The position numbers and the translations under genes are program-made. The notes under the pieces are model-generated. The model saw only the letters and a program-made list of their open reading frames with translations, searched no databases and was not told the origin of the DNA. Shown here piece after piece: positions 9,203 to 31,342 of a stretch of 32,000 nucleotides of DNA (positions within the stretch are counted from its first letter, which is position 1; every line of letters begins with the position of its first letter). This DNA is from Schaalia odontolytica (lineage in GTDB: Bacteria; Actinomycetota; Actinomycetes; Actinomycetales; Actinomycetaceae). The stretch lies in the NCBI RefSeq assembly GCF_005696695.1, contig NZ_CP040006.1:210001-242000 (forward strand), read 5' to 3'.

Positions 9203-9342
9203 GTGACAAGCATGAAACGTGCGCAGGGTATTTTCGAGGCCTTGGGGTGCTTAGCGCTCAAGGTCACACGTGGGTGTGATCAGGGAAAATGGGCTAAAAA
9301 TAGCCAATGTGGTTAATTTGCGCCTTTATTGTTGAGTAAATG

Positions 9343-9384: not shown

Positions 9385-9443
9385 TGTGGCGTTAACTGCG
9401 TCGCATCCCCCGGCGCTACGATGTGCGAGGGGCGCGTGCCTCG

Positions 9444-10082: not shown

Positions 10083-10295
10083 GGTTATAGGCTACCTTGT
10101 TCGTCCGTTGGCGCGCATCCAGTGCGTTGAAGACGAGGTCGGGGTCTCCTCGGCGCTTCCGCTGCGCCGGTCGGCGGCCCGGATCGGCAGTGTGTCGGGC
10201 CTCGTGTCAAACTCATTCGTCACACGAGCATCATGAGTCACTGTGGACTCCAACTACCCCAACAGTGATTTGGCCGGTAAGCTAGGAGGGTGACC

Positions 10296-12159: not shown

Positions 12160-12191
12160 AGGCCGCCCGGCAGATGTACTGCGGGCGGCCT
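12160..12191. terminator. Bidirectional hairpin terminator between mogA and moaC
   Basis: AGGCCGCCCGGCAG-atgta-CTGCGGGCGGCCT forms a 13-bp stem with one bulged G. An A-tract precedes it on the plus strand, giving a T-tract after the hairpin on the minus strand. Confidence 0.75.
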
Positions 12192-12208
12192 CCTCGTACA
12201 GTGGGGCG

Positions 12209-12691: not shown

Positions 12692-12725
12692 GGTTTTCCT
12701 CTCCTTAATTCTCTCCATGGTGGGG

Positions 12726-14003: not shown

Positions 14004-14441
14004 GTCACCAGTGTAGGGCCAGGTGGGGTGGGGCAGGCGTGTGGGGGCGTTTGCTCGGCGCTCGCTCGACGAGGCGTGGGTCGGGTTGTGTGGTTGGGGT
14101 GCGTTTGGGCTGTGCGTCCGTGGATGTCGGGGGAATTGCACTACATGAGGGTTCGACACGCCGGCGACACGCCGTTGGAAGGCCTCGTGTAGTGCAAAAC
14201 CCCCACGCGCGTGGCCTGGTGGGCCGTTGCTGGGGTGAATGTGGCTGTGGCCGCCACCAACAGGTGCAATGAACTGGTTTCGCACTGCCGGGGTGGTGGC
14301 TGCATGATCCTCGCTCGATGACGCTGATTGGGTGGCGGCCACTGTCTCCTTTCTCTCAACGACGAGGCAGGGGCCGCGTCATGCCGTTCGAGCTTGTTTT
14401 TCGAGGGGCGAACACAGGGCAAATCGCGGTAGGGTTGCGCC

Positions 14442-15596: not shown

Positions 15597-15729
15597 CATA
15601 GCGTTTACAAGGGTGATGCACGTCCCAATGAGTTCGTGTGGGTTACGTCATTTCAATTGGTAGCCTCCGTGTTAAAGAATGTCCGGCGCATGCCCGCGCT
15701 CGGACGTCCCTTTCGACCCGAGGAGAGCC

Positions 15730-17141: not shown

Positions 17142-20100
17142 ATGACGAATCTCGAATCCGATATGACCTTCCCGACCTACGGCGGCGAGGTCAAGCCCGC
17201 GACCGGCGCGACCCTGTTCGCGCTCGGCTCGTGGCTGCGTCGCGGCAAGGCGTCCGCCGACGCGCGCCAGCTCTTCCTTGAGGGCGGCCGCGACGGCGAC
17301 TCCTTCTACCGCGACCGCTGGAGCTACGACAAGATCGTGCGCTCCACCCATGGCGTGAACTGCACGGGCTCCTGCTCGTGGAAGATCTTCGTCAAGGACG
17401 GCGTCATCACCTGGGAAACCCAGCAGACTGACTACCCGTCGACCGGCGCGGACATGCCCGAGTACGAGCCCCGCGGCTGCCCGCGTGGTGCGGCGTTCTC
17501 GTGGTACGAGTACTCGCCGACCCGTATCAAGTACCCCTACGTGCGCGGCGTCCTGCTCGACATGTTCCGCGAGGCCAAGAAGCGCCTCGGGGATCCCGTC
17601 GACGCGTGGGCCGCGGTCGTCGAGGACCCGGAGAAGGCACGCGCCTACAAGTCGCAGCGTGGCCGCGGCGGCATGGTCCGCGTGTCGTGGGAAGAGGCGA
17701 TGGAGATCGTCGCCGCCGCCTACGTGCACACGATCAAGCAGTACGGCCCCGACCGCATCGCCGGCTTCTCGGTCATCCCCGCCATGTCGATGATCTCCTA
17801 CGGTGCGGGTGCCCGCTTCCACGAGCTCATCGGCGCCACCATGCTGTCCTTCTACGACTGGTACGCGGACCTGCCCCCGGCCTCGCCGCAGGTGTTCGGC
17901 GACCAGACCGACGTGCCCGAGGCCGGCGACTGGTTCAACTCGCAGTACCTCATCATGTGGGGCACGAACCTGCCGCTGACCCGTACCCCCGACGCTCACT
18001 TCATGGCCGAGGCCCGCTACCACGGCCAGAAGGTCATCGTCGTGTCCCCGGACTTCGCGGACAACACGAAGTTCGCGGACGACTGGTTGCGCGTCCAGCC
18101 CGGCACGGACGGCGCCCTGGCCCAGTCCATGGGTCACGTCATCCTCAAGGAATTCCACGTCGGCAAGCGCGAGCCCATGTTCCTCGATTACATGAAGCGC
18201 TACACCGACTCCCCGTTCCTGGTGGAGATCAACGAGGTCGGTGAGGGCGCCCACGAGGGAGTCGCCCCGACGACCCTGGTCCCCGGCAAGTTCCTGACGG
18301 CCGCCAAGATGCCCGCAGGCACGACCGAGCGCACCGAGAACAACCAGTTCCGTCCCCTCGTCATCGAGGCCGACGGCACGGTCAAGGACCCGGGCGGCAC
18401 GCTCGCCGATCGCTTCGGCGAGGAGGGCGCCGGCCACTGGAACCTCAACCTGGATGGCGTCGAGCCCGTCATGTCCATCATGGACACGGACGAGTGGGAA
18501 GCCGTTGAGATTGCCCTGCCGCGCTTCGACCTGCCCGCGGCCCCCGGCCAGGCCTCGGTCGGCGGCGGCTACGTGAAGCGTGGCGTGCCCGCGCGCCGCG
18601 TCAACGGCCGCCTCGTGACGACCGTGTTCGACATCCTGCTCGCCCAGTACGCCGTCGAGCGTGAGGGCCTGCCGGGCCAGTGGCCCACCGACTACATGGA
18701 CGCCTCCACGCCGGGCACCCCCGCGTGGCAGGAGGAGTTCACGTCGGTTCCCGCCGGAGCCGCCATCAAGATCGGCCGCGAGTTCGCACAGAACGCGGTT
18801 GAGACCGAGGGCCGTTCCATGATCCTCATGGGTGCCGGCACGAACCACTACTACCACTCCGACGAGATGTACCGTACGTTCCTGGCGCTCACGGAAATGT
18901 GTGGCACCCAGGGTCGCAACGGTGGCGGCTGGGCCCACTACGTGGGTCAGGAGAAGGTCCGCCCGATCATGGGTTGGGGCTCCTTCACCTTCGCCCTGGA
19001 CTGGGCGCGCCCGCCGCGCCAGATGATCTCCACCGGCTGGTACTACATGACCACCGACCAGTGGCGCTACGACGGGGCCCCGGCCTCGGCCATGGCGAAC
19101 CCGATCAAGTCCTCGCACCTGGACGGCAAGCAGCTGGTCGATACCCTCGTCGAGTCGGTTCAGCGCGGCTGGATGCCCTGCTACCCGACGTTCTCCAAGG
19201 GCTCGACCCAGCTGGGTCGCGAGGCCGCCGAGGCCGGCATGGCCCCCGCGGAATACGTGTCCCAGGAGCTGCGCGAGGGTCGCCTCCAGTTCGCGATCGA
19301 GGACCCGGACGCCCACCACAACGTCCCGAAGATCCTCGCGAACTGGCGTACGAACCTGCTTGGCTCGTCCGCGAAGGGCACCGAGTTCTTCCTGCGCCAC
19401 ATGCTGGGTACCGGCAACGAGGTCAACGCCGAGGAGCTGGAAGAGGGCAACCGCCCCGCGTCCGTCAACTGGCGTGAGGCTCACCCCGGCAAGCTCGACC
19501 TCATGTGGGTCGCGGACTTCCGCAACACCTCGACGACGCTGCACTCCGACGTCGTGCTGCCCGCCGCCACTTGGTATGAGAAGCACGACCTGTCCTCCAC
19601 GGACATGCACCCCTTCATGCACTGCTTCGACGAGGCCGTGAACCCGCCGTGGGAGGCGCGTACCGACTTCGAGGTGTTCCAGACCCTGGCTCGCCTCGTC
19701 GGCCGCATGGCCCCCGGCCACCTGGACACCCAGACGGACGTCGTCGCGGTCCCGCTGGGCCACGACTCCCCGGACGCCATGACCATGGTGGACGGCGTCG
19801 TTCCCGAGCAGACGTGGACGCCCGGCAAGACCATGCCGAAGCTGGTCCCGATCGAGCGCGACTACACGCAGGTTGGCTACAAGTTCGACCGCATGGGTCC
19901 GCTCCTGCCCAAGGCCGGACTGGCCTCGAAGGGCGTTGCGTACAACGTGCAGGAGGCGTACGAGCAGCTCGGCGACCTCAACGGCCGCGCCCCGATGGAC
20001 GGCAACGCCGGCGAGGGCATGCCGCTGTGCGACACCGCCATCAAGGCGGCGAACATGGCGCTGCGCTTCTCGGGCACCACGAACGGCTCGCTGGCCGTTC

Positions 20101-20912
20101 AGGGCTTCCGCACGCTGGAAAAGCGCGTCGGCAACGAGATGGCGTTCCTGGCCGAAGGTGACGAAGAAAAGAAGATCACCTACCAGGACACCGTCCTGCA
20201 GCCGCGCAGCGTCATCACCAGCCCCGAGTGGTCGGGTTCCGAGCACGGCGGTCGCCGCTACAGCGCCTTCGTGCAGAACGTCGAGTGCCGCAAGCCGTGG
20301 CACACGCTCACGGGCCGCCCGCAGTTCTACGTCGACCACGACTGGATGATGGACATGGGCGAGTCCCTGCCGATCTTCCGTCCGCCGCTCGACCTGGCGC
20401 ACATCTACGGTGAGCGCCCCGTCGGCGACCACCGTCCCGGCCAGCCGGGTCAGGCCGAGGTCGCGGTGCGCTACCTGACGATCCACAACAAGTGGGCCAT
20501 CCACTCTCAGTACTACGACAACCCGTACATGCTGACGCTGGGTCGTGGTGGCCAGACGGTGTGGATGAGCCCGCAGGACGCCGAGAAGATCGGCGTGCGC
20601 GACAACGAGTGGATCGAGGCGAAGAACCGTAACGGCACCGTGTCGGCTCGCGCTGTCGTCTCCCACCGCATCCCGGAGGGCACGGTGTTCATGCACCACG
20701 CCCAGGATCGCCAGATCAACACCCCGCTGAACGAGGGGTCCGGCAAGCGCGGCGGTACGCACAACTCGCTGACCCGAATCTTCATTAAGCCGACCCACCT
20801 GGCCGGCGGATACGCGCAGTTCGCCTACGCGTTCAACTACTACGGTCCCACCGGCAATAACCGCGACGAGGTCACGGTTATCCGCCGCCGCTCCCAGGAG
20901 GTGCAGTTCTGA
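17142..20912 (+). CDS. narG: Respiratory nitrate reductase alpha subunit NarG
   Basis: 1256 aa. It has the N-terminal HGVNCTGSCSWK motif (FS0 His/Cys cluster) and no Tat signal. AGGAG lies upstream. The stop overlaps the narH start. Confidence 0.97.
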   Translation: MTNLESDMTFPTYGGEVKPATGATLFALGSWLRRGKASADARQLFLEGGRDGDSFYRDRWSYDKIVRSTHGVNCTGSCSWKIFVKDGVITWETQQTDYPSTGADMPEYEPRGCPRGAAFSWYEYSPTRIKYPYVRGVLLDMFREAKKRLGDPVDAWAAVVEDPEKARAYKSQRGRGGMVRVSWEEAMEIVAAAYVHTIKQYGPDRIAGFSVIPAMSMISYGAGARFHELIGATMLSFYDWYADLPPASPQVFGDQTDVPEAGDWFNSQYLIMWGTNLPLTRTPDAHFMAEARYHGQKVIVVSPDFADNTKFADDWLRVQPGTDGALAQSMGHVILKEFHVGKREPMFLDYMKRYTDSPFLVEINEVGEGAHEGVAPTTLVPGKFLTAAKMPAGTTERTENNQFRPLVIEADGTVKDPGGTLADRFGEEGAGHWNLNLDGVEPVMSIMDTDEWEAVEIALPRFDLPAAPGQASVGGGYVKRGVPARRVNGRLVTTVFDILLAQYAVEREGLPGQWPTDYMDASTPGTPAWQEEFTSVPAGAAIKIGREFAQNAVETEGRSMILMGAGTNHYYHSDEMYRTFLALTEMCGTQGRNGGGWAHYVGQEKVRPIMGWGSFTFALDWARPPRQMISTGWYYMTTDQWRYDGAPASAMANPIKSSHLDGKQLVDTLVESVQRGWMPCYPTFSKGSTQLGREAAEAGMAPAEYVSQELREGRLQFAIEDPDAHHNVPKILANWRTNLLGSSAKGTEFFLRHMLGTGNEVNAEELEEGNRPASVNWREAHPGKLDLMWVADFRNTSTTLHSDVVLPAATWYEKHDLSSTDMHPFMHCFDEAVNPPWEARTDFEVFQTLARLVGRMAPGHLDTQTDVVAVPLGHDSPDAMTMVDGVVPEQTWTPGKTMPKLVPIERDYTQVGYKFDRMGPLLPKAGLASKGVAYNVQEAYEQLGDLNGRAPMDGNAGEGMPLCDTAIKAANMALRFSGTTNGSLAVQGFRTLEKRVGNEMAFLAEGDEEKKITYQDTVLQPRSVITSPEWSGSEHGGRRYSAFVQNVECRKPWHTLTGRPQFYVDHDWMMDMGESLPIFRPPLDLAHIYGERPVGDHRPGQPGQAEVAVRYLTIHNKWAIHSQYYDNPYMLTLGRGGQTVWMSPQDAEKIGVRDNEWIEAKNRNGTVSARAVVSHRIPEGTVFMHHAQDRQINTPLNEGSGKRGGTHNSLTRIFIKPTHLAGGYAQFAYAFNYYGPTGNNRDEVTVIRRRSQEVQF

Positions 20913-22462
20913 TGAAGGTCATGGCTCAGATCGCGATGGTGATGAACCTCGACAAGTGCATCGGCTGCCACACCTGTTCGGTCACCTGTAAGCAGGTGTG
21001 GACGAACCGCGAGGGTACCGAGTACATCTGGTTCAACAACGTCGAAACCCGTCCCGGCGTGGGCTACCCCCGCGGCTGGGAGGACCAGAAGAAGTGGAAG
21101 GGCGGCTGGAAGCGCACCGCCACGGGCCGCCTCGTTCCCCGTCAGGGCGGACGCGTCGCCTCGCTCGCGAAGATCTTCGCGAACCCGACGCAGCCGACCA
21201 TGAAGGACTACTACGAGCCGTGGACGTACGAGTACGACAAGCTGCTCCAGGCGCCCGCGAACTCCCGCGCGATCCCGACGGCCCGCGCGAAGTCCAAGAT
21301 CACGGGCGAGCACATTGACAAGCCCGAGTGGGGCCCGAACTGGGACGATGACCTGGGCGGCTCCATGGAGACCCTGGATCAGGACCCGGTCCTGCACCAG
21401 ATGAACCTCCAGGTCGCGAAGACCATCGAGGACGCGTACATGTTCTACCTGCCTCGCATCTGCGAGCACTGCCTGAATCCGACCTGCGTGTCGGCGTGCC
21501 CCTCGGGCGCGATGTACAAGCGCACCGAGGATGGCATCGTCCTCGTTGACCAGGATCAGTGCCGCGGCTGGCGCATGTGCGTGTCGGCCTGCCCCTACAA
21601 GAAGGTCTACTTCAACCACAACACGGGCAAGGCCGAGAAGTGCACGCTGTGCTACCCGCGCCTCGAGGTCGGCCAGCCGACCATCTGCTCGGAGACCTGC
21701 GTGGGCCGCCTGCGCTACATGGGCGTGCTGCTCTACGACGCGGACCGCGTCACCTGGGCCGCGTCCCAGGAGGACGAGCGCGACCTGTACCGCGCCCAGC
21801 GCGAGATCCTGCTCGACCCGAACGACCCGCAGGTGGTCGCCCAGGCCCAGGCCAACGGCGTTCCCCACTCGTGGATCACGGCCGCCCAGCAGTCCCCGAT
21901 CTGGAAGCTCATCACCGAGTACGAGGTTGCCCTGCCGCTGCACCCCGAGTTCCGCACCCTGCCGATGGTCTGGTACGTGCCGCCGCTCTCCCCGGTCGTC
22001 GACCAGGTGACCGCGTCCGGTAGCGACGGCGAGGACCACAAGGTTCTGCTGTCCGCCATCTCGCAGATGCGCATCCCGCTGGAGTACCTGGCCGGCCTGT
22101 TCACGGCCGGAGATACGGCCCCCGTGGAGCTGGCGCTGCGTCGCCTCGCCGCGATGCGCTCCTACATGCGCGACGTGTTCGTCGATAACCCGACGAACGA
22201 GGAGATCCCGGCCTCCGTGGGCATGACCCCGGAGAAGGTCAAGGAGATGTACCGCCTGCTGTCGATCGCTAAGTACGACGACCGCTTCGTCATCCCGACC
22301 GCCCACCCCGAGATGCCTCGCGGCATCAAGGATCTCGAGGGCTGCCCGGTGTCCTACGACGTCGAGGCCTTCCACGGCCTGGCCCCCGCCACGTCGAACC
22401 GCCCGATGGGTGGCTCGTCGCCGGAGGGACGCCAGATGCTCCCCCTTGAGGTCGTTCGATGA
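20912..22462 (+). CDS. narH: Respiratory nitrate reductase beta subunit NarH
   Basis: 516 aa. Ferredoxin-type cysteine groups are present: CIGCHTCSVTCK, CEHCLNPTCVSACP, CRGWRMCVSACP and CTLCYPR. Confidence 0.97.
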   Translation: MKVMAQIAMVMNLDKCIGCHTCSVTCKQVWTNREGTEYIWFNNVETRPGVGYPRGWEDQKKWKGGWKRTATGRLVPRQGGRVASLAKIFANPTQPTMKDYYEPWTYEYDKLLQAPANSRAIPTARAKSKITGEHIDKPEWGPNWDDDLGGSMETLDQDPVLHQMNLQVAKTIEDAYMFYLPRICEHCLNPTCVSACPSGAMYKRTEDGIVLVDQDQCRGWRMCVSACPYKKVYFNHNTGKAEKCTLCYPRLEVGQPTICSETCVGRLRYMGVLLYDADRVTWAASQEDERDLYRAQREILLDPNDPQVVAQAQANGVPHSWITAAQQSPIWKLITEYEVALPLHPEFRTLPMVWYVPPLSPVVDQVTASGSDGEDHKVLLSAISQMRIPLEYLAGLFTAGDTAPVELALRRLAAMRSYMRDVFVDNPTNEEIPASVGMTPEKVKEMYRLLSIAKYDDRFVIPTAHPEMPRGIKDLEGCPVSYDVEAFHGLAPATSNRPMGGSSPEGRQMLPLEVVR

Positions 22463-23148
22463 GTACTTTCGTCGGCATTCCGCGCATTCCTACGGCCGCT
22501 CCGGAGACGGAGATGGATCCGCAGGACGCGCGCGGTGTGCGCATGGCGGTCTCGGTCCTCCTGGACTATCCGGGGGATGACTTCGAGACCAAGCTGGACG
22601 CGGTCGAGGAGGCTCTGGCGAACCTGCCGGAGCCGGCCTCGGCGTCCCTGGCCACGTTCGTGAGCTACGCTCGCGCCGCTGGCCTGCGCGCCATGCAGAC
22701 CACCTACGTGGAGACGTTCGACCAGCGCCGACGCTGCGCGCTCGGCCTGACGTACTACACGCACGGCGACACTCGCGGACGCGGCCAGGCCATCTTGGCC
22801 TTCAAGGAGATCCTGCGCCGCGCCGGTTTCGAGATGGAACGCGAGGAGCTGCCCGATCACCTGCCGGTGGTCCTGGAGTTCGCGGCCTTCGACGAGACCG
22901 GTACGGCCGAGGGCCTGCTGCGCTCCAACCGCGAGGGTATCGAGGTGATCCGCACGGCGCTGCGCGCCGCGGACTCCCCGTACGCGCCGCTGCTGGATGC
23001 GCTGGTCGCGACGCTGCCCGAGCCGGACGAAAAGACCATTGAGGGCTTCCGTAAGCTCATTAGCCAGGGGCCGCCCACCGAACTGGTGGGCGTGGGCGAT
23101 CTGTCTGCCACGCCCTTCCCGACTTCCAATTCAACGATGGGACGGTAA
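22459..23148 (+). CDS. narJ: Nitrate reductase molybdenum cofactor assembly chaperone NarJ
   Basis: 229 aa, with ATGA overlap to narH. NarJ-like core: YVETFDQRRRCALGLTYYTHGDTRGRGQAILAFKE...LPDHLPVVLEFAAF. Confidence 0.9.
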   Translation: MSTFVGIPRIPTAAPETEMDPQDARGVRMAVSVLLDYPGDDFETKLDAVEEALANLPEPASASLATFVSYARAAGLRAMQTTYVETFDQRRRCALGLTYYTHGDTRGRGQAILAFKEILRRAGFEMEREELPDHLPVVLEFAAFDETGTAEGLLRSNREGIEVIRTALRAADSPYAPLLDALVATLPEPDEKTIEGFRKLISQGPPTELVGVGDLSATPFPTSNSTMGR

Positions 23149-23153
23149 CGTTC

Positions 23154-23930
23154 ATGGAATCCGCACTTTTGCATGCCGCGTCTGCAGCCGAGACGCAGTC
23201 GCTGTCCTTCCTGGACATTGCCCTGTGGGTGGTCCTGCCCTACGTGTCCTTCGCGATCCTCATCGTGGGCCTCGCGTGGCGCTACAAGACGGACCAGTAC
23301 GGCTGGACGTCTCGTTCCTCGCAGTGGAATGAGCCGACCATCCTGCGCTGGGCGTCGCCGCTGTTCCACTTCGGTGTTCTCTTCGTGTTCATGGGCCACA
23401 TCCTCGGCCTTGTGATCCCGAAGACGTGGACCGAGGCGGCCGGCGTGCCCCAGCACGTGTACCACCTGATGGCCACGATCCCCGGTACGATCGCCGGAAT
23501 CATGACGATCGTCGGCCTCGCGATGCTGATCTACCGCCGTCTGGTGTACAAGTCGGTGCGCGTGGCGACGACCCGCATGGATATCGTCACCTACGTCATG
23601 CTGACCATTCCGGTGCTCCTGGGCGGCGCGGCGACGCTGCTGAACCAGGTGCTCGGTGGGCACGAGGGCTACGACTACCGCGAGACGATCTCCGTCTGGT
23701 TCCGGTCGATCTTCTACCTGCACCCGCAGGCGCATCTGATGGTCGACGTGCCCCTCAGCTTCAAGCTGCACATCGTCGCTGGCCTGCTGCTCTTCTGCGT
23801 GTGGCCGTTCACCCGCCTCGTGCACGCGGTGAGCGCGCCGGTCGGCTACGTGGCGCGTCCCCCGGTGGTCTACCGTGCGCGCGACGAGCGCCGCGAGCAC
23901 CAGCTGACGCGCGGCGGTATGTCGGACTGA
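23154..23930 (+). CDS. narI: Respiratory nitrate reductase gamma subunit NarI
   Basis: 258 aa with five hydrophobic helices. Conserved WRYKTDQYGWTSRSSQ and FHFGVLFVFMGH segments are present. It is the last gene of narGHJI. Confidence 0.93.
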   Translation: MESALLHAASAAETQSLSFLDIALWVVLPYVSFAILIVGLAWRYKTDQYGWTSRSSQWNEPTILRWASPLFHFGVLFVFMGHILGLVIPKTWTEAAGVPQHVYHLMATIPGTIAGIMTIVGLAMLIYRRLVYKSVRVATTRMDIVTYVMLTIPVLLGGAATLLNQVLGGHEGYDYRETISVWFRSIFYLHPQAHLMVDVPLSFKLHIVAGLLLFCVWPFTRLVHAVSAPVGYVARPPVVYRARDERREHQLTRGGMSD

Positions 23931-23995: not shown

Positions 23996-24029
23996 GCGGG
24001 GGCGAGCGCAGGCTCGCCCCCGCGTCTTT
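23996..24029 (+). terminator. Terminator after narI
   Basis: A perfect 12-bp stem GCGGGGGCGAGC / GCTCGCCCCCGC with loop GCAG, followed by GTCTTTA. Confidence 0.7.
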
Positions 24030-24130
24030 ATCGTGGTCCCCGCGTTCTCACCTGTATGAATAGAGCGATAGACCCCGCGTAATGCGACCGACTGCTGGTA
24101 TTGGCCGTGCGGGTGGCTGTCTGTGATGGG

Positions 24131-24148
24131 TAGAATAAAGCGCGCTTT
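24131..24148 (+). promoter_or_regulatory. Candidate -10 box (TAGAAT) abutting a 12-bp perfect palindrome AAAGCGCGCTTT, upstream of the wHTH-MoaD gene
   Basis: TAGAAT lies at 24131-24136 in an AT-rich island. The palindrome at 24137-24148 lies ~85 nt upstream of the ATG at 24232. I found no convincing -35. A palindrome of this size is not statistically exceptional. Confidence 0.3.
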
Positions 24149-24231
24149 GTTAGTAACGTAACAGCTTTAATGCCGTATGGAGATGCCTATGAAGGGCATT
24201 TCCGCTGATTATGAGGGAGAGAGGATACGTC

Positions 24232-25227
24232 ATGAGTGATACCTCCCGTGCTCGGCCTCTGGCTGAAACACTCGCCGCAATGGCAGCGTTGACCCCTGCG
24301 CAGCACGCGCTCTTGGAACGCATCTCGCACCACGCGACGCCCGTGACCGTGGCGGAGTTGGCTCAGGAAGCTGGCTTGCACGTCTCGAGCGTGCGCGAGA
24401 CCCTTGAGGGCCTGTTCGCCCTTGGCCTCGTGGAAAAGCAGCAGCTCCCCTCATCCGGCCGTGGCCGCCCCGCGCTGGGCTATTCGACGATGACCCCGGC
24501 GGACCCCTCGTTTGCGGCGCAGATGCTGCACCAGCTCACCTCGTCGCTGCTGGCCTGGCTGCGCGTTGACGCGGCCGACCCGGCGGCTTCCGTGCGTGAG
24601 ATCGGCTCGCGCTGGGCGGACGCCGCCCTCGAGACGATGGCGGTGCCTGATCACAGCCACAATGCGAACCGTCGCCCCGTGCGCGACACCTTCAACATCG
24701 CGTCGCACCTGGGCAAGGTGCGCCTGTTCATGAACGCCATGGGTTTTGCGTCCGTCCCGCACGACACTGATCCGATGGCGGTCGTCCTGACGGCATGCCC
24801 GTTCACCGAGCCGGGCACCCCCGATGACCTGGCCCTCGAGCTGCGCCGCGGCATCGTCGAGCGAGTCTTCGAGCGGACGGCGACCGGCTTTGCCACCTGG
24901 TCACTGGAGAGCGATCCCGAGGATCCTCTGCGCCTGACGGTCTATATTCGACGGCTCGACGAGGCGAACCCGAAGCCGCTGTCGACGACCCTTCACTTCT
25001 TCGGTGGAGCGGCCGAGGCTGCCGGTGGGTACATGCGAGAACTGCCCTCCGATGAGACCCCCGCGACCCTGGGTGAACTCATCGATCAGCTCAGCTCAGA
25101 GAGCCCTGAGCTGGAGCGAATCCTCGCTGTGTCGAGCTACCTGGTCAACGAGCGCTCCGCTCGTCTGGATGCCGAGCTTGCGCCCGGCGCGCGCGTCGAC
25201 GTGCTGCCTCCGTTCGCCGGCGGGTGA
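24232..25227 (+). CDS. moaD: Fusion protein: N-terminal winged-helix regulator-like module (COG2345/SufR-like architecture) plus a C-terminal MoaD/ThiS sulfur-carrier domain ending in GG
   Basis: The ATG at 24232 lies 6 nt after GGGAGAGAGGA (the track ORF starts at 24211). The N-terminus reads LTPAQHALLERISHHATPVTVAELAQEAGLHVSSVRETLEGLFALGLVEKQQLPSSGRGRPALGY. The C-terminal ~80 aa read TLHFFGGAAEAAGG...LIDQL...RVDVLPPFAGG-stop. The frame is continuous, and moaE follows. Confidence 0.75.
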   Translation: MSDTSRARPLAETLAAMAALTPAQHALLERISHHATPVTVAELAQEAGLHVSSVRETLEGLFALGLVEKQQLPSSGRGRPALGYSTMTPADPSFAAQMLHQLTSSLLAWLRVDAADPAASVREIGSRWADAALETMAVPDHSHNANRRPVRDTFNIASHLGKVRLFMNAMGFASVPHDTDPMAVVLTACPFTEPGTPDDLALELRRGIVERVFERTATGFATWSLESDPEDPLRLTVYIRRLDEANPKPLSTTLHFFGGAAEAAGGYMRELPSDETPATLGELIDQLSSESPELERILAVSSYLVNERSARLDAELAPGARVDVLPPFAGG

Positions 25228-25328
25228 GATTTTTTAGTCATTTGTGTGGGGCGGTCAGGGTTGTAAGACAATCCTGACCGCTCCCTCGTAAGATGGAGGG
25301 GAAGGCATTCCCGTCCCTGGAGGATCCC

Positions 25329-25748
25329 ATGTCAGCTGAGATTGCAACCGGCATCACCGATGAGCCGCTGGATACTGGCGCGCTGATTGATAGCGCACGT
25401 CGGGATACGTGTGGTGCTGTGGCTTCCTTTATTGGGGTTGTGCGTAACCATGATGGTGGGGAGAGCGTGGACGCGATCGAGTATTCCTCGCACCCTTCGT
25501 CGCAGCAGATTCTGCGGGACATCGTCATGGAGTTCAAGGATCGTCCGGGTGTGCATTGCATCGTTGCGTGGCACCGCGTGGGGCATCTGGAGATCGGCGA
25601 GGATGCGATGGTCGTCGCCGTCGCTGCAGAGCATCGCGCGCAGGCATTCCGTGCGGTCGAGGCCATTGTCGAGGAAGTGAAGGCGAAGCTCCCGATCTGG
25701 AAGAAGCAGGAATTGACTGACGGTTCGCACAACTGGTCGGGTCTGTGA
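25329..25748 (+). CDS. moaE: Molybdopterin synthase catalytic subunit MoaE
   Basis: 139 aa from MSAEIATG. The ATG at 25329 lies 6 nt after GGAGGA. Sequence: GAVASFIGVVRNHDGGESV..LEYSSHP...VAVAAEHRAQAF...VKAKLPIWKKQ. Confidence 0.9.
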   Translation: MSAEIATGITDEPLDTGALIDSARRDTCGAVASFIGVVRNHDGGESVDAIEYSSHPSSQQILRDIVMEFKDRPGVHCIVAWHRVGHLEIGEDAMVVAVAAEHRAQAFRAVEAIVEEVKAKLPIWKKQELTDGSHNWSGL

Positions 25749-25749: not shown

Positions 25750-26574
25750 ATGACGATCGGCGATCCTTATTCCCGTGATGCGGCCGTTTCGGGTCGCACC
25801 GTCGCGCTTCCGCTGATCAATCAGCCCGTCCCGTACGAGGCCGGGGATCCTGCGCTGGAGCGTTTCCGTCGCAATTGGCTGGTGTCCGGTATTGGCGAGG
25901 CCGGTCAGGCGCGCCTGGCAGCCGCGCGCGTGCTCGTGGTGGGCGCGGGCGGCCTCGGCTCGCCCGTCCTCCTGTACCTGACGGCGGCGGGCATCGGCAC
26001 GATCGGTATCTGCGATTCCGACGTGGTCGAGGTGTCGAATCTTCAGCGTCAGCTCCTGCATGGCGAGGGTGATGTGGGGGATCCGAAGCCGGATTCTGCG
26101 GTGCGTCACCTGAGCGGACTGAACTCCTCGGTGCGCTTTGAGCGCTACGGGCACGTGACCCGCGAGTGGCTGGACGAGCATGGCCGTGAGTGGGACCTGA
26201 TCGTCGAGTGCACGGATAGCTTTGACTCGAAGTACCTCGTGGCGGACTACTGCGCGGATTCTGGTGTTCCGCTGGTGTGGGGCACGGTCGTGTCGATGGC
26301 CTTCCAGGTGAGCGTGTTCTGGTCTGCGGCACCGGCTCCCGTGCCGTCTCTGACGCTGCGGAGCCTGCACCCGGTCAAGCCTGCCCCCGGGACGACCCCG
26401 GCCTCGCCGAAGGTTGGCGTGCTCGGTCCCGTGGTCGGTCAGGCGGGCACCGCGATGGCGACGGAGGCAATCAAGCTGCTGGTGGGCTTTGGTGAGCCGC
26501 TGATCGGGCGCGTCCTCATGACGGATGCGGCGACGCAGCGCGCCGACGTGCTGACCTTCGCCCCGTGGGACTGA
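25750..26574 (+). CDS. moeB: MoeB/ThiF-family adenylyltransferase (E1-like), with no rhodanese domain and no CxxC zinc motifs
   Basis: 274 aa. It has the Rossmann motif VLVVGAGGLGSP, NLQRQ, ECTDSFDSKY and GVLGPVVG. The positions of the two CxxC pairs in E. coli MoeB read LRSL here, and the protein ends before the second pair. Confidence 0.85.
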   Translation: MTIGDPYSRDAAVSGRTVALPLINQPVPYEAGDPALERFRRNWLVSGIGEAGQARLAAARVLVVGAGGLGSPVLLYLTAAGIGTIGICDSDVVEVSNLQRQLLHGEGDVGDPKPDSAVRHLSGLNSSVRFERYGHVTREWLDEHGREWDLIVECTDSFDSKYLVADYCADSGVPLVWGTVVSMAFQVSVFWSAAPAPVPSLTLRSLHPVKPAPGTTPASPKVGVLGPVVGQAGTAMATEAIKLLVGFGEPLIGRVLMTDAATQRADVLTFAPWD

Positions 26575-27197
26575 GTCCCGTGGCTGCCCCGCGCGCTGAC
26601 GTCGCTGCGATCGTCGTCGGCGGCGGTGGGGGAGAGCGCCTGGGTGGCGTCTCCAAGCCTGACCTGACGCTGGGTGGCGTGCGCTTGATCGACCGCGTCT
26701 GCGGGGTCTTGACGGAGGCGTGCAGTGCGGGTTGCGTGGCTGTCGTGCCGCCCAGTGTACGCGTCCCGGATGGCGTCGCACGCACCCTCGAGGATCCGCC
26801 AAGCGGCGGCCCGCTGGCCGGTATCGACGCCGGCCTGCGTGCGCTGAGCGTCGGCGACGACGTCCTCGTCGTGGTTGTTTCCGTCGATGCTCCCGGCGTG
26901 GGTGCTTTCCTGCCCGCCCTCCTTGAGCCCGCGTTAGGTGAGAGTAGCGACGGGCGTATCGTGCGCGGTGGCGATCCGGAGCCTTTTGACCAGTACCTGA
27001 TGGGCGTCTACCGCGCTGGCGCGCTGCGCCGCGTCCTCGACGAGGCCGTGGCCGCCCTCGGGTCGGTCCGTGGCGTGGGGGTTCGTCGGGTGCTGCGCGC
27101 CCTTGACGTCGAGCGGGTGAGCGTGGGCGCTGACGTCTGCAGGGACATCGATACCCCTGAGGATGTGGCCTGGTGGGAGACATTTCTGAGCAACTGA
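26565..27197 (+). CDS. mobA: Molybdenum cofactor guanylyltransferase MobA
   Basis: 210 aa. It has the N-terminal IVVGGGGGERLGG nucleotide-binding motif and NTP_transf_3-like features (VSVDAPGV, CRDIDTPED). The GTG start is uncertain (26565 overlaps moeB; 26580 is the alternative). Confidence 0.8.
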   Translation: MGLSPVAAPRADVAAIVVGGGGGERLGGVSKPDLTLGGVRLIDRVCGVLTEACSAGCVAVVPPSVRVPDGVARTLEDPPSGGPLAGIDAGLRALSVGDDVLVVVVSVDAPGVGAFLPALLEPALGESSDGRIVRGGDPEPFDQYLMGVYRAGALRRVLDEAVAALGSVRGVGVRRVLRALDVERVSVGADVCRDIDTPEDVAWWETFLSN

Positions 27198-27272
27198 TTT
27201 GTCAGTAACGCGCTTTTGGGTGTAGGTTTAGCTAGTAAGCATCTAGTGACCCATCCCACTCAAGGCGTGCTC

Positions 27273-29330
27273 ATGAATCTTCGTCACGGACAACTGTGGC
27301 AGCGACTCGGACTGGCCGTACTGTCAGGCATTCTCGTCGCCTCCCTCGCTCCTGCCACTGCCGCCGCTCCGACAGATGGCCAGAACATGCATGGCGACAT
27401 GGAGTCTACCGACCTCGATGCGTCGAGCTCCGACTCCGGCGTTTCCGCCCCCGACACCGCGCAGGACCGTGCGGCCTCGGACGGTGCTGATGCTTCCGAT
27501 GCCGCCGAATCCGCGGATTCCGCAGACGAGGCCACGGCCTCGTCCGAGGAAGAAAGCACGGACGGCGTCGACGCGCAGGTCTACACTTTCCCCGGCACGG
27601 ATGGCCCCACCCGCATTCATGTTCTAACGACGACGGGTTCGGCGGACGCCATCCTACTCGAGTCGCGCGGCGTCTTCGCCATGATCGACGGAGCCGAGGG
27701 GGTCGGCGCCCCCGACGGCAAGGATCCGCGTTACCCCCTGCGCGAGGGAGTCGTTAATGCCGCGCTCGGAGATACCGACTGGGTACTCGGCTATATGTCC
27801 AACCATGGCGTCACCTCCTCGAACCTCGCGTTCTACCTGGGCACGCACGCCCACTCCGACCACATCGACAACGCGGATGAGATCATCAAGAAGTTCCGCC
27901 CGAAGGTCATTCTCAGCCCCGAGTATTCCGACGAGTGGATTACGGATAAGTCCCGCCTGTGGGACAACCAGTGGATCTACGACAACATGATGGCGGCCGC
28001 GCGATGGGCTCAGGGCGCGTACGGAGCCTCGATCGTGCAGAACATCAAGGACTACAACACCCACATCACGCTGGGTGATATGGATGTCCAGATCATCCCC
28101 ACGGATCCGGCTGAAAACTACAAGAAGACCGGCGTGCGCGATGCAAACCTCATCGCATATACCGCGAAGGTGAGCGCCTTCGGGCATTCCGCCTACCTGG
28201 CCGCCGACCTGGAGGCTGGTGGAGGTTACGAGGACCGCATAGCCCCGATCGTTGGGCATGTTGACATGCTCAAGGCCGGTCACCATGGCCTGCCGACCTC
28301 TAACTCGAGTGCCTTCATGAAGGCGCTGAGCCCCTCCATGATCGCCCAGACCGGGCCGGAGTGGTACATCCCCGACAATCTGACTGAGAGCGTCATTCAT
28401 GGCGACTCATCGTGGGTGCCGCTGATGGATCTGTGGTCCAGTGCGCACATTCCCTCGCTCATCGCAACTTTCGGCCCTTCCGGCATTTCGTACAACGATC
28501 TGTCCTACGCTTCCTGGGGGCATGAGTACGGCCTGGAAAGTCCGCGCGCCTGGTGGTTCAAGGGCGGCCGACCCGCGGCTACGACCGGCTGGTGGAAGGG
28601 AAGCAGCGGCAACTGGTACTACTTCGCCGGCAAGCCCTCCGCCGAGGCCAGTACCTGGGTGTATGACGGCGGCCAGTGGTACTGGATGGATTACTCCGGG
28701 GCGATGGCATCCTCGGGGCTGGTCGACACGGGTAAAGGCCTCTACTATCTCGACTCTGCGGGGCACCCTTCCGGTAATGGGTGGATGCAGATTAAAGGCA
28801 AGTGGTACTACCTACACGACGGACGCGCCCATAACGGTTGGCTGTACGACGGCGGCTCCTGGTACTGGCTCGATGGACGCACGGGCGATATGGCCACCGG
28901 CTGGACGAGCGTTCAGGGATCCTGGTACTACATGCGTTCTTCGGGCGCGATGGTCACCGGGTGGCTGGACGGCGGCGGCACCTGGTACTACCTGAGCGCC
29001 AGTGGTGTGATGGTGACCGGATGGCTGTACGACAACGGCTCCTGGTACTACTTCGGCAGCGAGGGAATGATGGCCCTCGGCTGGTTCTCGGATGGAAGCG
29101 CTGTGTACTACGCGGCACCCTCCGGTGCGATGGCGACCGGCTGGCTCTACTCGAACGGCTCCTGGTACTACCTGGGCTTGAGCGGCGCTCGGGCAACAGG
29201 CTGGGTTCTGGATGGTGGTGCGTGGTACTACCTGTCGTATGACGGGCGGATGGTCACCGGTCGGAACTATATCGATGGGCGCTTCTCGGTCTTTACTGAC
29301 TCCGGCGTCTGGGTGGGGTACACCTTCTGA
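27273..29330 (+). CDS. Secreted metallo-beta-lactamase-fold hydrolase with ~12 C-terminal cell-wall/choline-binding-type repeats (Pce/CbpE-like architecture)
   Basis: MNLRHGQLWQRLGLAVLSGILVASLAPATAAA is a signal peptide, followed by an acidic Ser/Asp-rich linker. The MBL motif HAHSDH lies at 27846-27863, with KAGHHG later. About 12 repeats of ~20 aa follow (GWxxxxGxWYYxxxSGxMxT). The track ORF starts at 27216. Confidence 0.85.
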   Translation: MNLRHGQLWQRLGLAVLSGILVASLAPATAAAPTDGQNMHGDMESTDLDASSSDSGVSAPDTAQDRAASDGADASDAAESADSADEATASSEEESTDGVDAQVYTFPGTDGPTRIHVLTTTGSADAILLESRGVFAMIDGAEGVGAPDGKDPRYPLREGVVNAALGDTDWVLGYMSNHGVTSSNLAFYLGTHAHSDHIDNADEIIKKFRPKVILSPEYSDEWITDKSRLWDNQWIYDNMMAAARWAQGAYGASIVQNIKDYNTHITLGDMDVQIIPTDPAENYKKTGVRDANLIAYTAKVSAFGHSAYLAADLEAGGGYEDRIAPIVGHVDMLKAGHHGLPTSNSSAFMKALSPSMIAQTGPEWYIPDNLTESVIHGDSSWVPLMDLWSSAHIPSLIATFGPSGISYNDLSYASWGHEYGLESPRAWWFKGGRPAATTGWWKGSSGNWYYFAGKPSAEASTWVYDGGQWYWMDYSGAMASSGLVDTGKGLYYLDSAGHPSGNGWMQIKGKWYYLHDGRAHNGWLYDGGSWYWLDGRTGDMATGWTSVQGSWYYMRSSGAMVTGWLDGGGTWYYLSASGVMVTGWLYDNGSWYYFGSEGMMALGWFSDGSAVYYAAPSGAMATGWLYSNGSWYYLGLSGARATGWVLDGGAWYYLSYDGRMVTGRNYIDGRFSVFTDSGVWVGYTF
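28587..29327 (+). repeat. Coding tandem repeats (~60-bp period) encoding cell-wall-binding repeats
   Basis: The core TCCTGGTACTAC(C/T)T recurs at about 60-bp intervals. The peptide units follow GW(L/T)xxxGSWYY(L/M/F)xxSGxM(V/A)T. Confidence 0.85.
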
Positions 29331-29686: not shown

Positions 29687-30199
29687 TCAGCGCTGCTCGT
29701 CGAGCTGGTGGAAGATCGCGGGGAGCAGGGGCGTGACCACCTCGAGGGTGTCGAGCGCGCCGCCTCGCGAGCCGGGAGAGGAGATGATGAGCGCGCCCGA
29801 GGCGTCGCGCGCCGTCATGCCGACCACCTCGCGGGACAGGCCTGACAGGGGAGTGTTGCTCAGGCCGTGGGCACGGATCTGCTCGGCGATGCCGGGGATC
29901 TCGACCTCGATGATCGAGCGGACGATCTCGGGCGCGTAGTTGCCCACGCCGAAACCCGAGCCACCCAGGACCAGGATGAAGCGCGCGCCGGCCTCGAGCG
30001 CGTCGCGAATCTCCGTCTCGAGGATGTCGGCGCTCTCGGGGATCGCTGCGACCGTCACGGGACCCAGGCCGGCTTCGACTAGCGCCGCTGTGCAGGCAGG
30101 GGTCGCCCGGTCCTCCTTCGTGCCGCGCTGGATGCGGTCGGAATAGGTGATGACGTGGGCGCTGATCTGGCTGAGGTCGTAGTCGACAGGCTTGGGCAT
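29687..30199 (-). CDS. moaB: MoaB/MogA-family protein, divergent paralog
   Basis: 170 aa: HVITYSDR...ARFILVLGGSGFGVGNYAPEI...SSPGSRGGALD. The fold-family pattern is clear, but the canonical TTGGTG..RD.TPE motif is replaced by LGGSGFGVGNYAPE. Confidence 0.75.
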   Translation of the reverse strand: MPKPVDYDLSQISAHVITYSDRIQRGTKEDRATPACTAALVEAGLGPVTVAAIPESADILETEIRDALEAGARFILVLGGSGFGVGNYAPEIVRSIIEVEIPGIAEQIRAHGLSNTPLSGLSREVVGMTARDASGALIISSPGSRGGALDTLEVVTPLLPAIFHQLDEQR

Positions 30200-30547
30200 G
30201 GTGTCCTCCGAGGTGTGGTGACGTGCTGGTGACTGTGATCCTAGTCCCTTCCTGCTGTGGAGGCGGGGCTGAGGGCAGGCGTGAGCGTGAGGTGATTTTG
30301 TGTGCGCGTCGCCCGAGGGAAAAGGGGCCTCCGGACGTCTGAGTGCGCTGATGCGCGACTGAAGCGGCCTGCGGATGGCGGCTCACCCCGTTTTATGATG
30401 GGTGAAAACAAGTTAAATAACTTTCTGGCTTTCCCCGGTATTAAAAGCAAAAGTAACAATTTGGGTGCGCTCTTGCGAAGCGTTGCGTGCTTGCTGCGCC
30501 CCTTGTTAGATTTAACGCGTTCGATTCCCTCTCAAAAGGAGATATGA

Positions 30548-31342
30548 GTGCGTTCCCTCCGCATCCTCCCCGCCATCGGCGCCGCCGCCCTGGCACTCGC
30601 CGCCTGCACGGGCGGCTCCACCCCCGCCGACTCCACGGCCTCGGCCGAGGCGACGCAGCCCGCCGAGACCACCGTCCTTAACGTCTACGCCGCCGCCTCC
30701 CTCACCGAGACCTTCGGTGAACTCGAGAAGACCTTCGAGGAAGCCAACCCCGGCGTGGACGTACGCTTCAACTTCGCGGGCTCCCAGGACCTCGTGACCC
30801 AGCTCGGCGAAGGGGCGGACGTCGACGTCCTGGCCACCGCCAACGAGTCCACCATGAAGAAGGCCGCCGAGGCCTCGCAGGTCGACGCGCAGACCATCTT
30901 CGTCACCAACACCCTCACCCTCATCACGACGCCCGGCAACCCGGCGGGCGTGACCGGCCTCGACTCCTCGCTCGACGGAGTCAAGCTGGTGATCTGTGCG
31001 CCCGAGGTCCCCTGCGGCAAGCTCACCAAGACCCTCACCGAGAAGCTCGGCGTGACCCTGAACCCCGTCTCCGAGGAGCAGGCCGTCACCGACGTGCGCG
31101 GCAAGGTCTCCTCTGGCCAGGCCGACGCCGGCATCGTCTACAAGACCGACGCCCTCGCCGAGGGCGACGCCGTCGACACCGTCGCCATCCAGGGCGCCGA
31201 CGAGGCCGTCAACAAGTACCCGATCGCCCTCGTGAGTGCCTCGACCAAGAAGGACCTCGGCCAGAAGTGGATCGACCTGGTTCTGTCCGCCGACGGCCAG
31301 AAGATCCTCGAAAACGCCGGATTCACGCCCGCCGCGAAGTAA
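30548..31342 (+). CDS. modA: Molybdate ABC transporter substrate-binding lipoprotein ModA
   Basis: 264 aa. The GTG start lies 4 nt after AAGGAGA. The lipobox is LALAAC. Sequence: LNVYAAASLTETF...FNFAGSQDLVTQL...AGIVYKTDA. modB follows. Confidence 0.9.
   Translation: MRSLRILPAIGAAALALAACTGGSTPADSTASAEATQPAETTVLNVYAAASLTETFGELEKTFEEANPGVDVRFNFAGSQDLVTQLGEGADVDVLATANESTMKKAAEASQVDAQTIFVTNTLTLITTPGNPAGVTGLDSSLDGVKLVICAPEVPCGKLTKTLTEKLGVTLNPVSEEQAVTDVRGKVSSGQADAGIVYKTDALAEGDAVDTVAIQGADEAVNKYPIALVSASTKKDLGQKWIDLVLSADGQKILENAGFTPAAK

Follow-up and report, generated by a model that had tools for sequence, protein, structure and literature searches.

The forward-strand gene at positions 24232-25227 of the 32,000-nucleotide stretch of the Schaalia odontolytica genome analysed here (positions 210,001 to 242,000 of contig NZ_CP040006.1; hereafter the window) encodes a 331-residue protein in which a regulator of the COG2345 family is joined to a MoaD-type sulphur carrier. 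We propose that this gene is probably a genuine bifunctional fusion, whose product serves both as the sulphur carrier of molybdopterin (MPT) synthase and as an ArnR-type regulator devoid of its iron-sulphur (Fe-S) cluster, and that it arose when two genes of one nar-moa cluster, moaD and that of the regulator, were joined. It is located between the genes of respiratory nitrate reductase, an enzyme that depends on the molybdenum cofactor (Moco), and moaE and moeB. The computational results presented below establish the fused architecture of the protein, the identity of its two halves, the conservation of its genetic context, the absence of the Fe-S ligands and the route by which the fusion evolved.

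A single stop-free frame extends from 24193 to 25224 and is closed by the stop codon at 25225-25227 on the forward strand (open reading frame (ORF) analysis of the window). A first inspection made without database searches (the sequence-only reading) had described one ORF of 331 codons, and the frame at 24232-25227 bears this out. Translation probably starts at the ATG at 24232, with the Shine-Dalgarno (SD) sequence GAGGGAGAGAGGA ahead of it at 24213-24225, and the resulting 331-residue product has the length of most orthologues. An alternative ATG at 24211, which would give 338 residues, is judged to be a less likely start. The protein comprises four parts, all encoded in that frame. The first is a DNA-binding domain of the winged helix-turn-helix (wHTH) type (24259-24495), delineated by Pfam MarR_2/HTH_IclR, by the secondary structure of an AlphaFold 2 (AF2) model and by Foldseek. 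Next come dimerisation helices and a sensory domain of predicted TRAPPC3/Bet3-V4R-H-NOX-like fold (residues ~94-241, 24511-24954; AF2, Foldseek and hhalign). A linker predicted to be flexible (residues 242-251, ...DEANPKPLST, 24955-24984) leads to the last part, a MoaD beta-grasp domain that ends in VLPPFAGG (residues 252-331, 24985-25224; Pfam ThiS, Protein Data Bank (PDB) matches and Foldseek). The linker forms a block with a predicted local distance difference test (pLDDT) value of 59 in the full-length AF2 model, and its poorly conserved columns vary among genera.

The wHTH with its GRGRPALGY wing and a C-terminal MoaD domain of ~80 residues with a free Gly-Gly end had both been recognised in the sequence-only reading, and profile and structure searches upheld them. 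Pfam places MarR_2/HTH_IclR at residues 17-83, above the gathering threshold, with the GRGRPALGY motif present, and ThiS/MoaD PF02597 at residues 255-331 (profile positions 2-76 of 76), with 45.6-47.4 bits for a cutoff of 22.5. AF2 models compared with Foldseek likewise support a wHTH at the N terminus and a beta-grasp fold of the MoaD/ThiS type at the C terminus, the latter closing with ...VDVLPPFAGG-stop.

The junction between the two halves bears on the idea that the gene gives rise to a free MoaD, by proteolysis of the linker or by internal initiation, so that the mature proteins would be separate. We regard this as quite unlikely. The sequence-only reading had seen no SD-preceded start codon before the MoaD part, and indeed no ATG, GTG or TTG is present in frame at codons ~236-256; the first in-frame ATG is that of M268, within the MoaD fold. 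A Met residue near the junction occurs in only four of the 44 species loci with a fused gene. These two observations led us to reject an internal translation start for MoaD, although the four junction Met residues, together with the flexible linker, are what could be put forward for a dual-product gene. A precedent for cleavage exists in MoaX, the MoaD-MoaE fusion of Mycobacterium tuberculosis, which needs to be cleaved for activity (PMC4326299). However, cleavage of MoaX is needed only to free the Gly-Gly tail, which is already free here. The window junction has no SD sequence either, 40 of the 44 species lack the junction Met, the linker shows no conserved cleavage motif, and no JAMM/MPN protease is seen among the annotated neighbours.

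Three surveys were used to delimit the family, namely a search of 5.8 billion proteins, a scan of loci in one genome per GTDB species, and HMMER run exhaustively against 1.84 billion representatives. The protein search returned ~60 full-length clusters (at 90% identity) with both domains, whose identity to the window protein ranges from 98% down to 41%. The GTDB-species scan found 46 loci, with the window being a 99% match to the Schaalia odontolytica/Pauljensenia group. In 44 of these 46 loci, the MoaD domain closes a stop-free frame that reaches at least 240 residues upstream, and the in-frame junction is also present in dozens of metagenome clusters. An assembly artefact, a frameshift or a missed stop codon at the junction, a risk pointed out in the sequence-only reading, is excluded by the in-frame junction in 44 independent species-level assemblies. 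The fused state is found in Schaalia/Pauljensenia, Actinomyces culturomici, A. mediterranea, A. bouchesdurhonensis, Buchananella, Peptidiphaga, Actinobaculum and Ancrocorticia, and, beyond Actinomycetaceae, in Propionibacterium cyclohexanicum and in metagenome-assembled genomes (MAGs) of Propionibacteriaceae. Only eight clusters at 50% identity give end-to-end profile matches in the HMMER pass, so that the clade with the fusion, though real, is a narrow one. Both halves of the fusion have diverged at similar rates.

Close matches that look like stand-alone MoaD proteins (P0079-P0086) were considered as possible split genes and rejected as artefacts of broken contigs. P0084 belongs to a MAG with many errors, whose narI and moeB are broken too, and P0080 stems from copies of the fusion that are truncated at contig ends or interrupted by N-filled scaffold gaps. 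P0043 and P0064 are frameshifted copies of the fusion. Two loci are carried by contigs titled Xylanimonas cellulosilytica 352_XCEL (L003, NZ_JVKM01000060.1) and Sanguibacter keddieii 250_SKED (L014, NZ_JVOJ01000034.1); both are 97-99% identical to the Schaalia window and are probably mislabelled.

In its last 80 residues, the protein is a typical MoaD of actinobacteria, with its Gly-Gly tail free and its coding sequence in the moaD slot before moaE and moeB. A PDB sequence search places it closest to MoaD2, as solved in two entries for MPT synthase from mycobacteria (6JC0 and 6JBZ), and Foldseek gives template modelling (TM) scores of 0.83-0.85 to MoaD2, to Escherichia coli MoaD (1fm0_D) and to MoeB-bound MoaD (1jwb_D). 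The AF2 model of this domain has pLDDT values that are mostly 86-94 over residues 252-320. The VLPPFAGG terminus, in which Gly-Gly directly precedes the stop codon, is invariant among all fused orthologues, and stand-alone actinobacterial MoaDs, which share 47-57% identity with the C-terminal domain, have an identical VDVLPPFAGG tail. That this is the only MoaD of the window, as initially claimed, held when the six frames were searched with a hidden Markov model (HMM) of the C-terminal domain and scanned for ORFs ending in Gly-Gly: no second MoaD/ThiS-like ORF was found. The latter scan of the window returned only the fusion itself, moaA, whose product also ends in Gly-Gly, and compositional junk. 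No further MoaD-like ORF was detected in the orthologous loci of ~20 kb in 44 species.

It is conceivable that the C-terminal domain is a decoy that reports the availability of MoaE or MoeB, with a separate MoaD encoded elsewhere in the genome serving MPT synthase. The score of the domain lies below the cutoff of the NCBIfam moaD equivalog, and actinobacteria such as M. tuberculosis have several moaD and moaE paralogues (PMC4326299), which would both fit such a role. Nevertheless, the domain fills the moaD slot beside moaE and moeB in every genus, its gene even overlapping moaE in some, and both its core and its tail show the same degree of conservation as those of MoaDs that stand alone. In addition to the absence of another MoaD-like ORF within ~20 kb in 44 species, the nearest true stand-alone MoaDs (at most ~57% identity) come from other organisms, among the minority of matches in the protein search whose source could be identified. 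A sensor-only MoaD is therefore, in our opinion, unlikely.

Activation of the Gly-Gly tail by MoeB might alternatively serve for ubiquitin-like conjugation to target lysines, in the manner of SAMP or Urm1, which would tether the DNA-binding module to partner proteins. The operon does encode an E1-like enzyme, and the domain bears a weak likeness to SAMP1 (NCBIfam NF041918, 19.9-25.5 bits; Foldseek matches 3po0 and 4hro). However, the SAMP1 score is far below the cutoff of 60, the best matches are bona fide MoaDs of MPT synthases, the gene context is purely that of Moco synthesis and nitrate respiration, and no deconjugating JAMM protease is seen nearby. We thus hold a role in conjugation to be very unlikely.

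As judged from profile alignments, the N-terminal 250 residues of the protein are a full-length homologue of ArnR/SufR-type COG2345 transcription factors. In Corynebacterium glutamicum, ArnR represses narKGHJI and hmp under aerobic conditions; its wHTH is followed by a dimerisation helix and by a sensory domain like TRAPPC3, with a [4Fe-4S] cluster held by C179, C193 and C223, and in Corynebacterium its gene is directly downstream of narKGHJI (PMC12343034). Using the C. glutamicum ArnR sequence (NP_600411.1) from the dataset of the preprint 10.64898/2025.12.26.696629, hhalign aligned the N-terminal family with ArnR residues 13-227 of 230 over 209 columns, with a probability of 99.4% and an E value of 1.6e-21, spanning residues ~15-238 of the fusion. 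A BLASTP comparison of ArnR with the regulator module of the window gave 29% identity over 115 residues. The sequence-only reading had noted a VLTACPF motif in the middle domain and had likened the architecture to that of actinobacterial COG2345/SufR-like regulators. The motif is present and the family assignment is confirmed, both by the full-length alignment with ArnR and by the inclusion of the Schaalia meyeri orthologue in COG2345 of the CDD; the specific likeness to ArnR and the missing cluster ligands go beyond that initial guess, as do the unfused arrangements and the MoaD-less regulators described below.

In the wHTH, the putative recognition helix LHVSSVRETL covers residues 49-58 and the GRGRP 'AT-hook' of the wing residues 76-80 (24457-24471). 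Residues H50, V54, R55 and G78-R79-P80 are invariant, unfused relatives included. According to the preprint 10.64898/2025.12.26.696629, COG2345 members including ArnR and SufR read DNA with their HTH and a 'GRP' AT-hook in the wing. The Foldseek matches of the wHTH belong to the ArsR/SmtB/MarR/Lrs14 group. A domain-only AF2 model of residues 86-250 has a pLDDT of 91 and a predicted TM score (pTM) of 0.86. The best Foldseek matches of the sensory domain are TRAPP subunits of the Bet3/TRAPPC3 family, followed by BcsD, H-NOX, the phenol sensor PoxR and YslB, at TM scores of ~0.5 and with a best E value of 6e-4.

As for the cluster ligands, the alignment and a table of ligand positions show that only the first is kept: ArnR C179 corresponds to C189 of the fusion (24796-24798), while C193, H196 and C223 are replaced with L202, R205 and L235, respectively. 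The entire 331-residue protein contains a single cysteine. Unfused relatives outside the clade that contains the fusions all carry the C-X13-C-X2-H-X28-32-C signature. Throughout that clade, in contrast, the second Cys is replaced with L, F, A, S or E and the His with Arg, including in the unfused proteins P0269-P0272 and in proteins made of the HTH module without MoaD (HTH-only). On the evidence of these alignments, the canonical [4Fe-4S] site is absent, and the fusion is a homologue of the COG2345 family rather than a member of its Fe-S-sensing class. The ligand loss in P0269-P0272 and in the HTH-only forms indicates that the cluster ligands were lost before the fusion took place. We considered H141, H159 and C189 as a substitute metal site and rejected it, as H141 and H159 are common in relatives of the Fe-S type and C189 is not invariant among the fusions. 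The C189 position is occupied by S, A, L or I in four fused lineages, a variability that also argues against C189 as an obligatory persulphide relay. S. odontolytica grows too poorly in air for aerobic testing (PMC11904265). This poor growth suggests compatibility with a relaxed need for a cluster that senses O2 or NO.

The fused state, found in the 44 species loci, can be compared with the split state within the same family. The oral species Actinomyces graevenitzii has a separate 301-residue COG2345 regulator that keeps Cys1, Cys2 and His, and a separate MoaD of 82 residues encoded after moaA in its moa-nar cluster. In Micropruina-type loci, a homologue of the Fe-S type is divergent from moaA-moaD. 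The nearest unfused relative of the fusion is P0269, which shares 41% identity over 234 residues and whose cluster includes Acidipropionibacterium virtanenii. Its gene belongs to a tight operon with overlapping genes, narK-narGHJI-regulator-moaA-moaD-moaE, and the MoaD and MoaE of this operon are 55% and 53% identical to their window counterparts. As in the window, the regulator gene comes directly after narI, and its product is already without Cys2 and His (F and R at these positions). Unlike in the window, the regulator and MoaD are separate, with moaA between their genes; the moaA of the window is upstream of narK. Joining the regulator gene to moaD would thus need only the loss of moaA and of one stop codon, and the position of moaA upstream of narK in the window agrees with its removal from between the two genes.

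We also found intact HTH-only versions without nar or moa neighbours, in Schaalia sp. 19OD2882, in Schaalia vaccimaxillae and in one metagenome contig. In the two Schaalia species, their genes adjoin that of a TadA-like deaminase (L001, 8001-8753, and L046, 9974-10714, respectively), and the locus is devoid of the entire nar-moa island, with the regulator module intact. The HTH-only forms are placed among the fusions in neighbour-joining (NJ) trees computed without support values, a placement that suggests a secondary loss of MoaD. The regulator module must therefore be an autonomous unit, since such versions persist. A metNIQ transporter is also encoded near the HTH-only gene of Schaalia sp. 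19OD2882, and the same genes are present at 5858-11642 of the window. In Nocardia, COG2345 homologues of the Fe-S type are divergently paired with a rhodanese sulphurtransferase (L055, Nocardia cyriacigeorgica, 5927-7750), which represents a further tie between this regulator subfamily and sulphur-transfer genes.

The functions that we attribute to the two halves come from knowledge of their families. The C-terminal Gly-Gly of MoaD is adenylated by MoeB, thiocarboxylated and inserted into MoaE. By analogy, the MoaD domain of the fusion would be adenylated and thiocarboxylated by MoeB, and its Gly-Gly tail would enter MoaE for molybdopterin synthesis with MoaD still tethered via the flexible linker of ~10 residues. 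The N-terminal module, for its part, would dimerise and bind AT-rich operator DNA without a cluster, its probable targets being its own promoter, upstream of fusion-moaE-moeB-mobA, and/or that of narK, as in the case of ArnR. With carrier and regulator on one polypeptide, the dose of repressor would necessarily equal that of MoaD, which would result in negative autoregulation of MPT synthase. It is tempting to speculate that DNA binding might be modulated when MoaE or MoeB engages the MoaD domain, or by the chemistry of its tail, in replacement of the lost Fe-S input.

In the most elaborate form of this idea, the tethered MoaD would be the signal-input module of a cluster-less repressor of the ArnR type. 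The binding of the dimer to DNA would be switched when MoaE or MoeB captures MoaD, or according to whether the tail is free, adenylated or thiocarboxylated; the tail might dock near C189 and R205, in the pocket that the cluster has vacated. If true, the flux of sulphur and Moco would directly set the transcription of the moa operon and perhaps of the nar operon, and a prokaryotic ubiquitin-like sulphur carrier would act in cis as the allosteric domain of a transcription factor. We consider this scenario doubtful. In particular, we had envisaged that MoaD took the place of the Fe-S cluster just when the fusion occurred, and this is weakened by P0269-P0272 and the HTH-only forms, as these unfused proteins are already without the ligands. 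Ligand loss before the fusion and the existence of MoaD-less sisters likewise weaken the case for MoaD as a replacement input for the cluster.

Several observations weigh against the bifunctional fusion that we favour. The C-terminal domain obtains only 25-30 bits (25.6-29.8) with the NCBIfam moaD equivalog TIGR01682, for a cutoff of 66.15. ArnR loses its cluster as well as its ability to bind DNA when any one of the Cys ligands is missing (PMC12343034); given this dependence on the cluster, a relative that has none might interact with DNA differently. As the MoaD-less sisters and the earlier ligand loss demonstrate, the regulator can do without MoaD. The full-length AF2 model (mean pLDDT 86, pTM 0.62) gives an uncertain inter-domain geometry, from which contacts between MoaD and the sensory domain cannot be deduced. 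Finally, the boxes conserved in the fusion promoter do not occur above chance at the narK, moaA or modA promoters, and an unbiased k-mer search of strictly intergenic regions in 13-15 divergent lineages yielded nothing above shuffled controls.

A simpler explanation is that the co-transcribed regulator and moaD genes were passively joined, 'Rosetta-stone' fashion, with their products performing independent jobs and the tether carrying no regulatory information, so that only co-expression is assured. The dependence of ArnR on its cluster, the MoaD-less sisters and the earlier ligand loss make a passive fusion a strong rival, and we find it distinctly possible, if not our preferred reading. It would readily follow from an unfused operon like that of P0269, in which narKGHJI, regulator, moaA, moaD and moaE genes overlap and the Fe-S ligands of the regulator are already gone. 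The linker, which is short, variable and predicted to be flexible, the survival of the regulator module without MoaD in several lineages and the narrowness of the clade, with its eight clusters at 50% identity, also fit this explanation. On the other hand, two families have kept the frame, in proteins whose identity falls as low as ~41%, and a passive fusion would force a transcription factor to the stoichiometry of an enzyme subunit, which is unusual and would be selected against if harmful. The MoaD-less forms also branch among the fused ones in the NJ tree, in which nodes have no support values. None of these arguments proves coupling, and a passive fusion of neighbouring genes accounts for the data equally as well as coupling by MoaE/MoeB or by the state of the tail.

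The DNA ahead of the fusion gene was examined for elements through which a bifunctional regulator-carrier might act. An intrinsic terminator after narI, made of a 12-bp GC-rich stem followed by a T-run (23996-24023 or 23996-24033, forward strand), divides the nar operon from the fusion operon. Phylogenetic footprinting across 13 Schaalia-group species delineates a promoter and 5'-untranslated region (5'-UTR) at 24100-24225 on the same strand. It comprises a conserved box, ATTGGCCGTGCGG (24100-24112), a -10-like TAGAAT (24131-24136), the AT-rich dyad TGTTA-N6-TAACA immediately downstream of it (24148-24163) and the SD sequence already mentioned. The 'palindrome plus A/T flanks' format of the dyad resembles that of SufR and ArnR sites (preprint 10.64898/2025.12.26.696629), and its position would suit an autorepressor; by this analogy, it is a candidate operator only. 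The box ATTGGCCGTGCGG is kept even in P. hongkongensis and S. georgiae, in which the protein is only 67% identical, and with ~20 nt between it and the -10 element it is too distant for a normal -35. A 5'-UTR hairpin of 9 bp is predicted between GGAGATGCC and GGCATTTCC (24179-24203), followed by a conserved GCTGATTA and then by the SD sequence. We did not retain this hairpin as a structured RNA element, given the weak covariation, with only one compensatory pair across 10 species. No Moco riboswitch was found upstream of the fusion, either at the Rfam gathering score or in a permissive E-value scan.

The search for an operator shared by the four candidate regulatory regions gave no statistically supported common motif. 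The candidates GTTAGTAAC, TTGGCCGTGCGG, AGTAACGTAAC and GTTACGTAAC were all discarded, as their frequency in the window equals or approaches that expected by chance, and matches resembling GTTACGTAAC are also present upstream of the unrelated metNIQ genes. Of 13 regions upstream of narK, 5, from different genera, contain a palindrome resembling TTACGTAA, for 0.5 expected from shuffled sequences, with the motif having been defined post hoc. The sites are at 15643-15650 in the window and in loci L041, L034, L038 and L027, at varying distances from narK. We rejected it as a site for the fusion protein, owing to its post hoc definition, its variable position and its absence from most fusion promoters; a nar regulator, which need not be the fusion protein, may bind there.

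The spacer between the fusion gene and moaE holds a conserved hairpin of 9 bp, GCGGTCAGG...CCTGACCGC (25251-25281, forward strand), with a compensatory change from T-A to C-G in the alignment with L024. A T-run that overlaps the fusion stop codon precedes this hairpin (spacer 25229-25281), and terminator-like matches are found at 25209-25238. The hairpin is absent in the genera in which the fusion gene and moaE overlap. It is possible that it represents an attenuator or an RNA-processing site that sets the ratio between the fusion protein and MoaE.

Other upstream regions also show conserved elements. An extended -10 (TGnTAnnnT; TGGTAGCCT in the window) is located at 15658-15666, ~13 nt before the narK ATG at 15679, and each of the genera examined has a similar element immediately ahead of narK (narK upstream regions L024-L044). 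This suggests that narK has a very short leader or a leaderless mRNA, or that its start codon is mis-set. Upstream of modA, AT-rich boxes are strongly conserved in the region 30449-30516, namely AAAAGTAAC (30449-30457) and TTGTTAGATTTAA (30504-30516), the latter of which may simply be a -10 element.

The fusion gene starts 302 nt past narI, and the order of the genes is the same across genera. On the forward strand, moaA (14442-15506), narK (15679-17073) and narGHJI (17142-23930), all assigned by Pfam, precede it. It is followed on that strand by moaE, which encodes MPT synthase's large subunit (25329-25748; Pfam MoaE, 113.8 bits), by moeB, which encodes a ThiF-family E1-like MoaD adenylyltransferase without a rhodanese domain (25750-26574; Pfam ThiF, 192 bits), and by the last gene of the operon, coding for a MobA-like nucleotidyltransferase (26565-27197; Pfam NTP_transf_3 and synteny). 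The moaE gene had been placed ~100 nt downstream in the sequence-only reading; its conserved, SD-preceded ATG at 25329 is 102 nt past the fusion stop codon. The synteny narK-narGHJI, fusion, moaE and, in most cases, moeB is found in essentially every genus, in both Actinomycetaceae and Propionibacteriaceae. In Peptidiphaga, Actinobaculum and Ancrocorticia (L040-L042), the 3' end of the fusion gene overlaps moaE, as in classical coupled moaD-moaE pairs.

Further downstream, the table of neighbours lists a gene for a protein of 704 residues with choline-binding/cell-wall-binding repeats (27216-29330, forward strand), which is located between mobA and the mog/modA genes, a mog/moaB-like gene (29687-30199, reverse strand) and modA (30548-31342, forward strand). 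The distance between mobA and mog is very variable among close relatives, which suggests a variable insertion site within the Moco cluster. Neither moaC nor moeA was found among the Pfam-scanned ORFs of the window; both are present in the moa cluster of A. graevenitzii (L061/L062). The window ORFs at 8591-9316, 9423-10130, 12174-12656, 12717-13517 and 13521-14192 have no Pfam match.

S. odontolytica is an oral, medically relevant nitrate reducer, and the system is small and experimentally tractable. Both modules of the fusion belong to known families, and their combination is visible in databases, where the names given to it are inconsistent with one another ('MoaD/ThiS family protein', 'MarR family transcriptional regulator', 'ArsR family transcriptional regulator/m...'). 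We found no description of an HTH-MoaD fusion in the ThiS/MoaD survey of Iyer et al., in PMC12343034, in the preprint 10.64898/2025.12.26.696629 or in targeted literature searches. The dataset of the preprint includes the S. meyeri orthologue among 326 CDD COG2345 representatives and flags it as 'CysClusterOutlier'; MoaD appears nowhere in the text of the preprint, which leaves this orthologue undiscussed. As the only characterised ArnR requires its Fe-S cluster to bind DNA (PMC12343034), the fusion amounts to a natural experiment, namely an ArnR-type regulator minus its cluster, covalently joined to the sulphur carrier of Moco synthesis. If the two halves communicate, this would be the first ubiquitin-like protein of the ThiS/MoaD type to serve as the regulatory domain of a transcription factor, and it would create direct feedback from cofactor synthesis to the genes of respiration. 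Even without communication, our analysis ties an uncharacterised, cluster-less COG2345 subgroup firmly to nar and Moco biology, provides a stepwise record of the origin of a fusion and corrects the inconsistent naming in databases.

Compared with known systems, the regulator half is like C. glutamicum ArnR in its winged helix with the GRGRP hook, its dimerisation helix, its TRAPPC3-like sensory domain, its gene position after the nar operon and the first cluster Cys, and unlike it in the replacement of three ligands and in the addition of an 80-residue MoaD at the C terminus. SufR, the founding member of COG2345 (M. tuberculosis Rv1460, cyanobacteria, Streptomyces), has the same architecture and the same combination of GRP AT-hook and HTH. 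However, it controls the suf operon and its cluster needs C179, C192, E195 and C220, which sets it apart from the outlier-flagged orthologue of the fusion. Schaalia has a separate canonical SufR (WP_050694806.1, preprint dataset), and the fusion must therefore be a paralogue with a different role. The carrier half shares the beta-grasp, the length, the ...VDVLPPFAGG terminus and the adjacency to moaE/moeB or moaA with the stand-alone actinobacterial MoaDs, i.e. MoaD2 and those of A. graevenitzii and Propionibacteriaceae. As read from the gene, the window version is the C-terminal domain of a 331-residue DNA-binding protein, unlike these free proteins of ~80 residues.

As for fusions, those known for MoaD and ThiS are the MoaD-MoaE protein 'MoaX', ThiS-ThiG, aldehyde ferredoxin oxidoreductase-MoaD and sulphite reductase-ThiS (Iyer et al. 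2006); a fusion to a transcription factor is absent from the listing of that survey. As in the aldehyde ferredoxin oxidoreductase-MoaD and sulphite reductase-ThiS proteins, the carrier of the S. odontolytica fusion is C-terminal, its Gly-Gly tail is free and its partner is a functional neighbour. In contrast, the listed partners of the known fusions are enzymes of the same sulphur-transfer or cofactor-using pathway, whereas here the partner is of the transcription-factor type.

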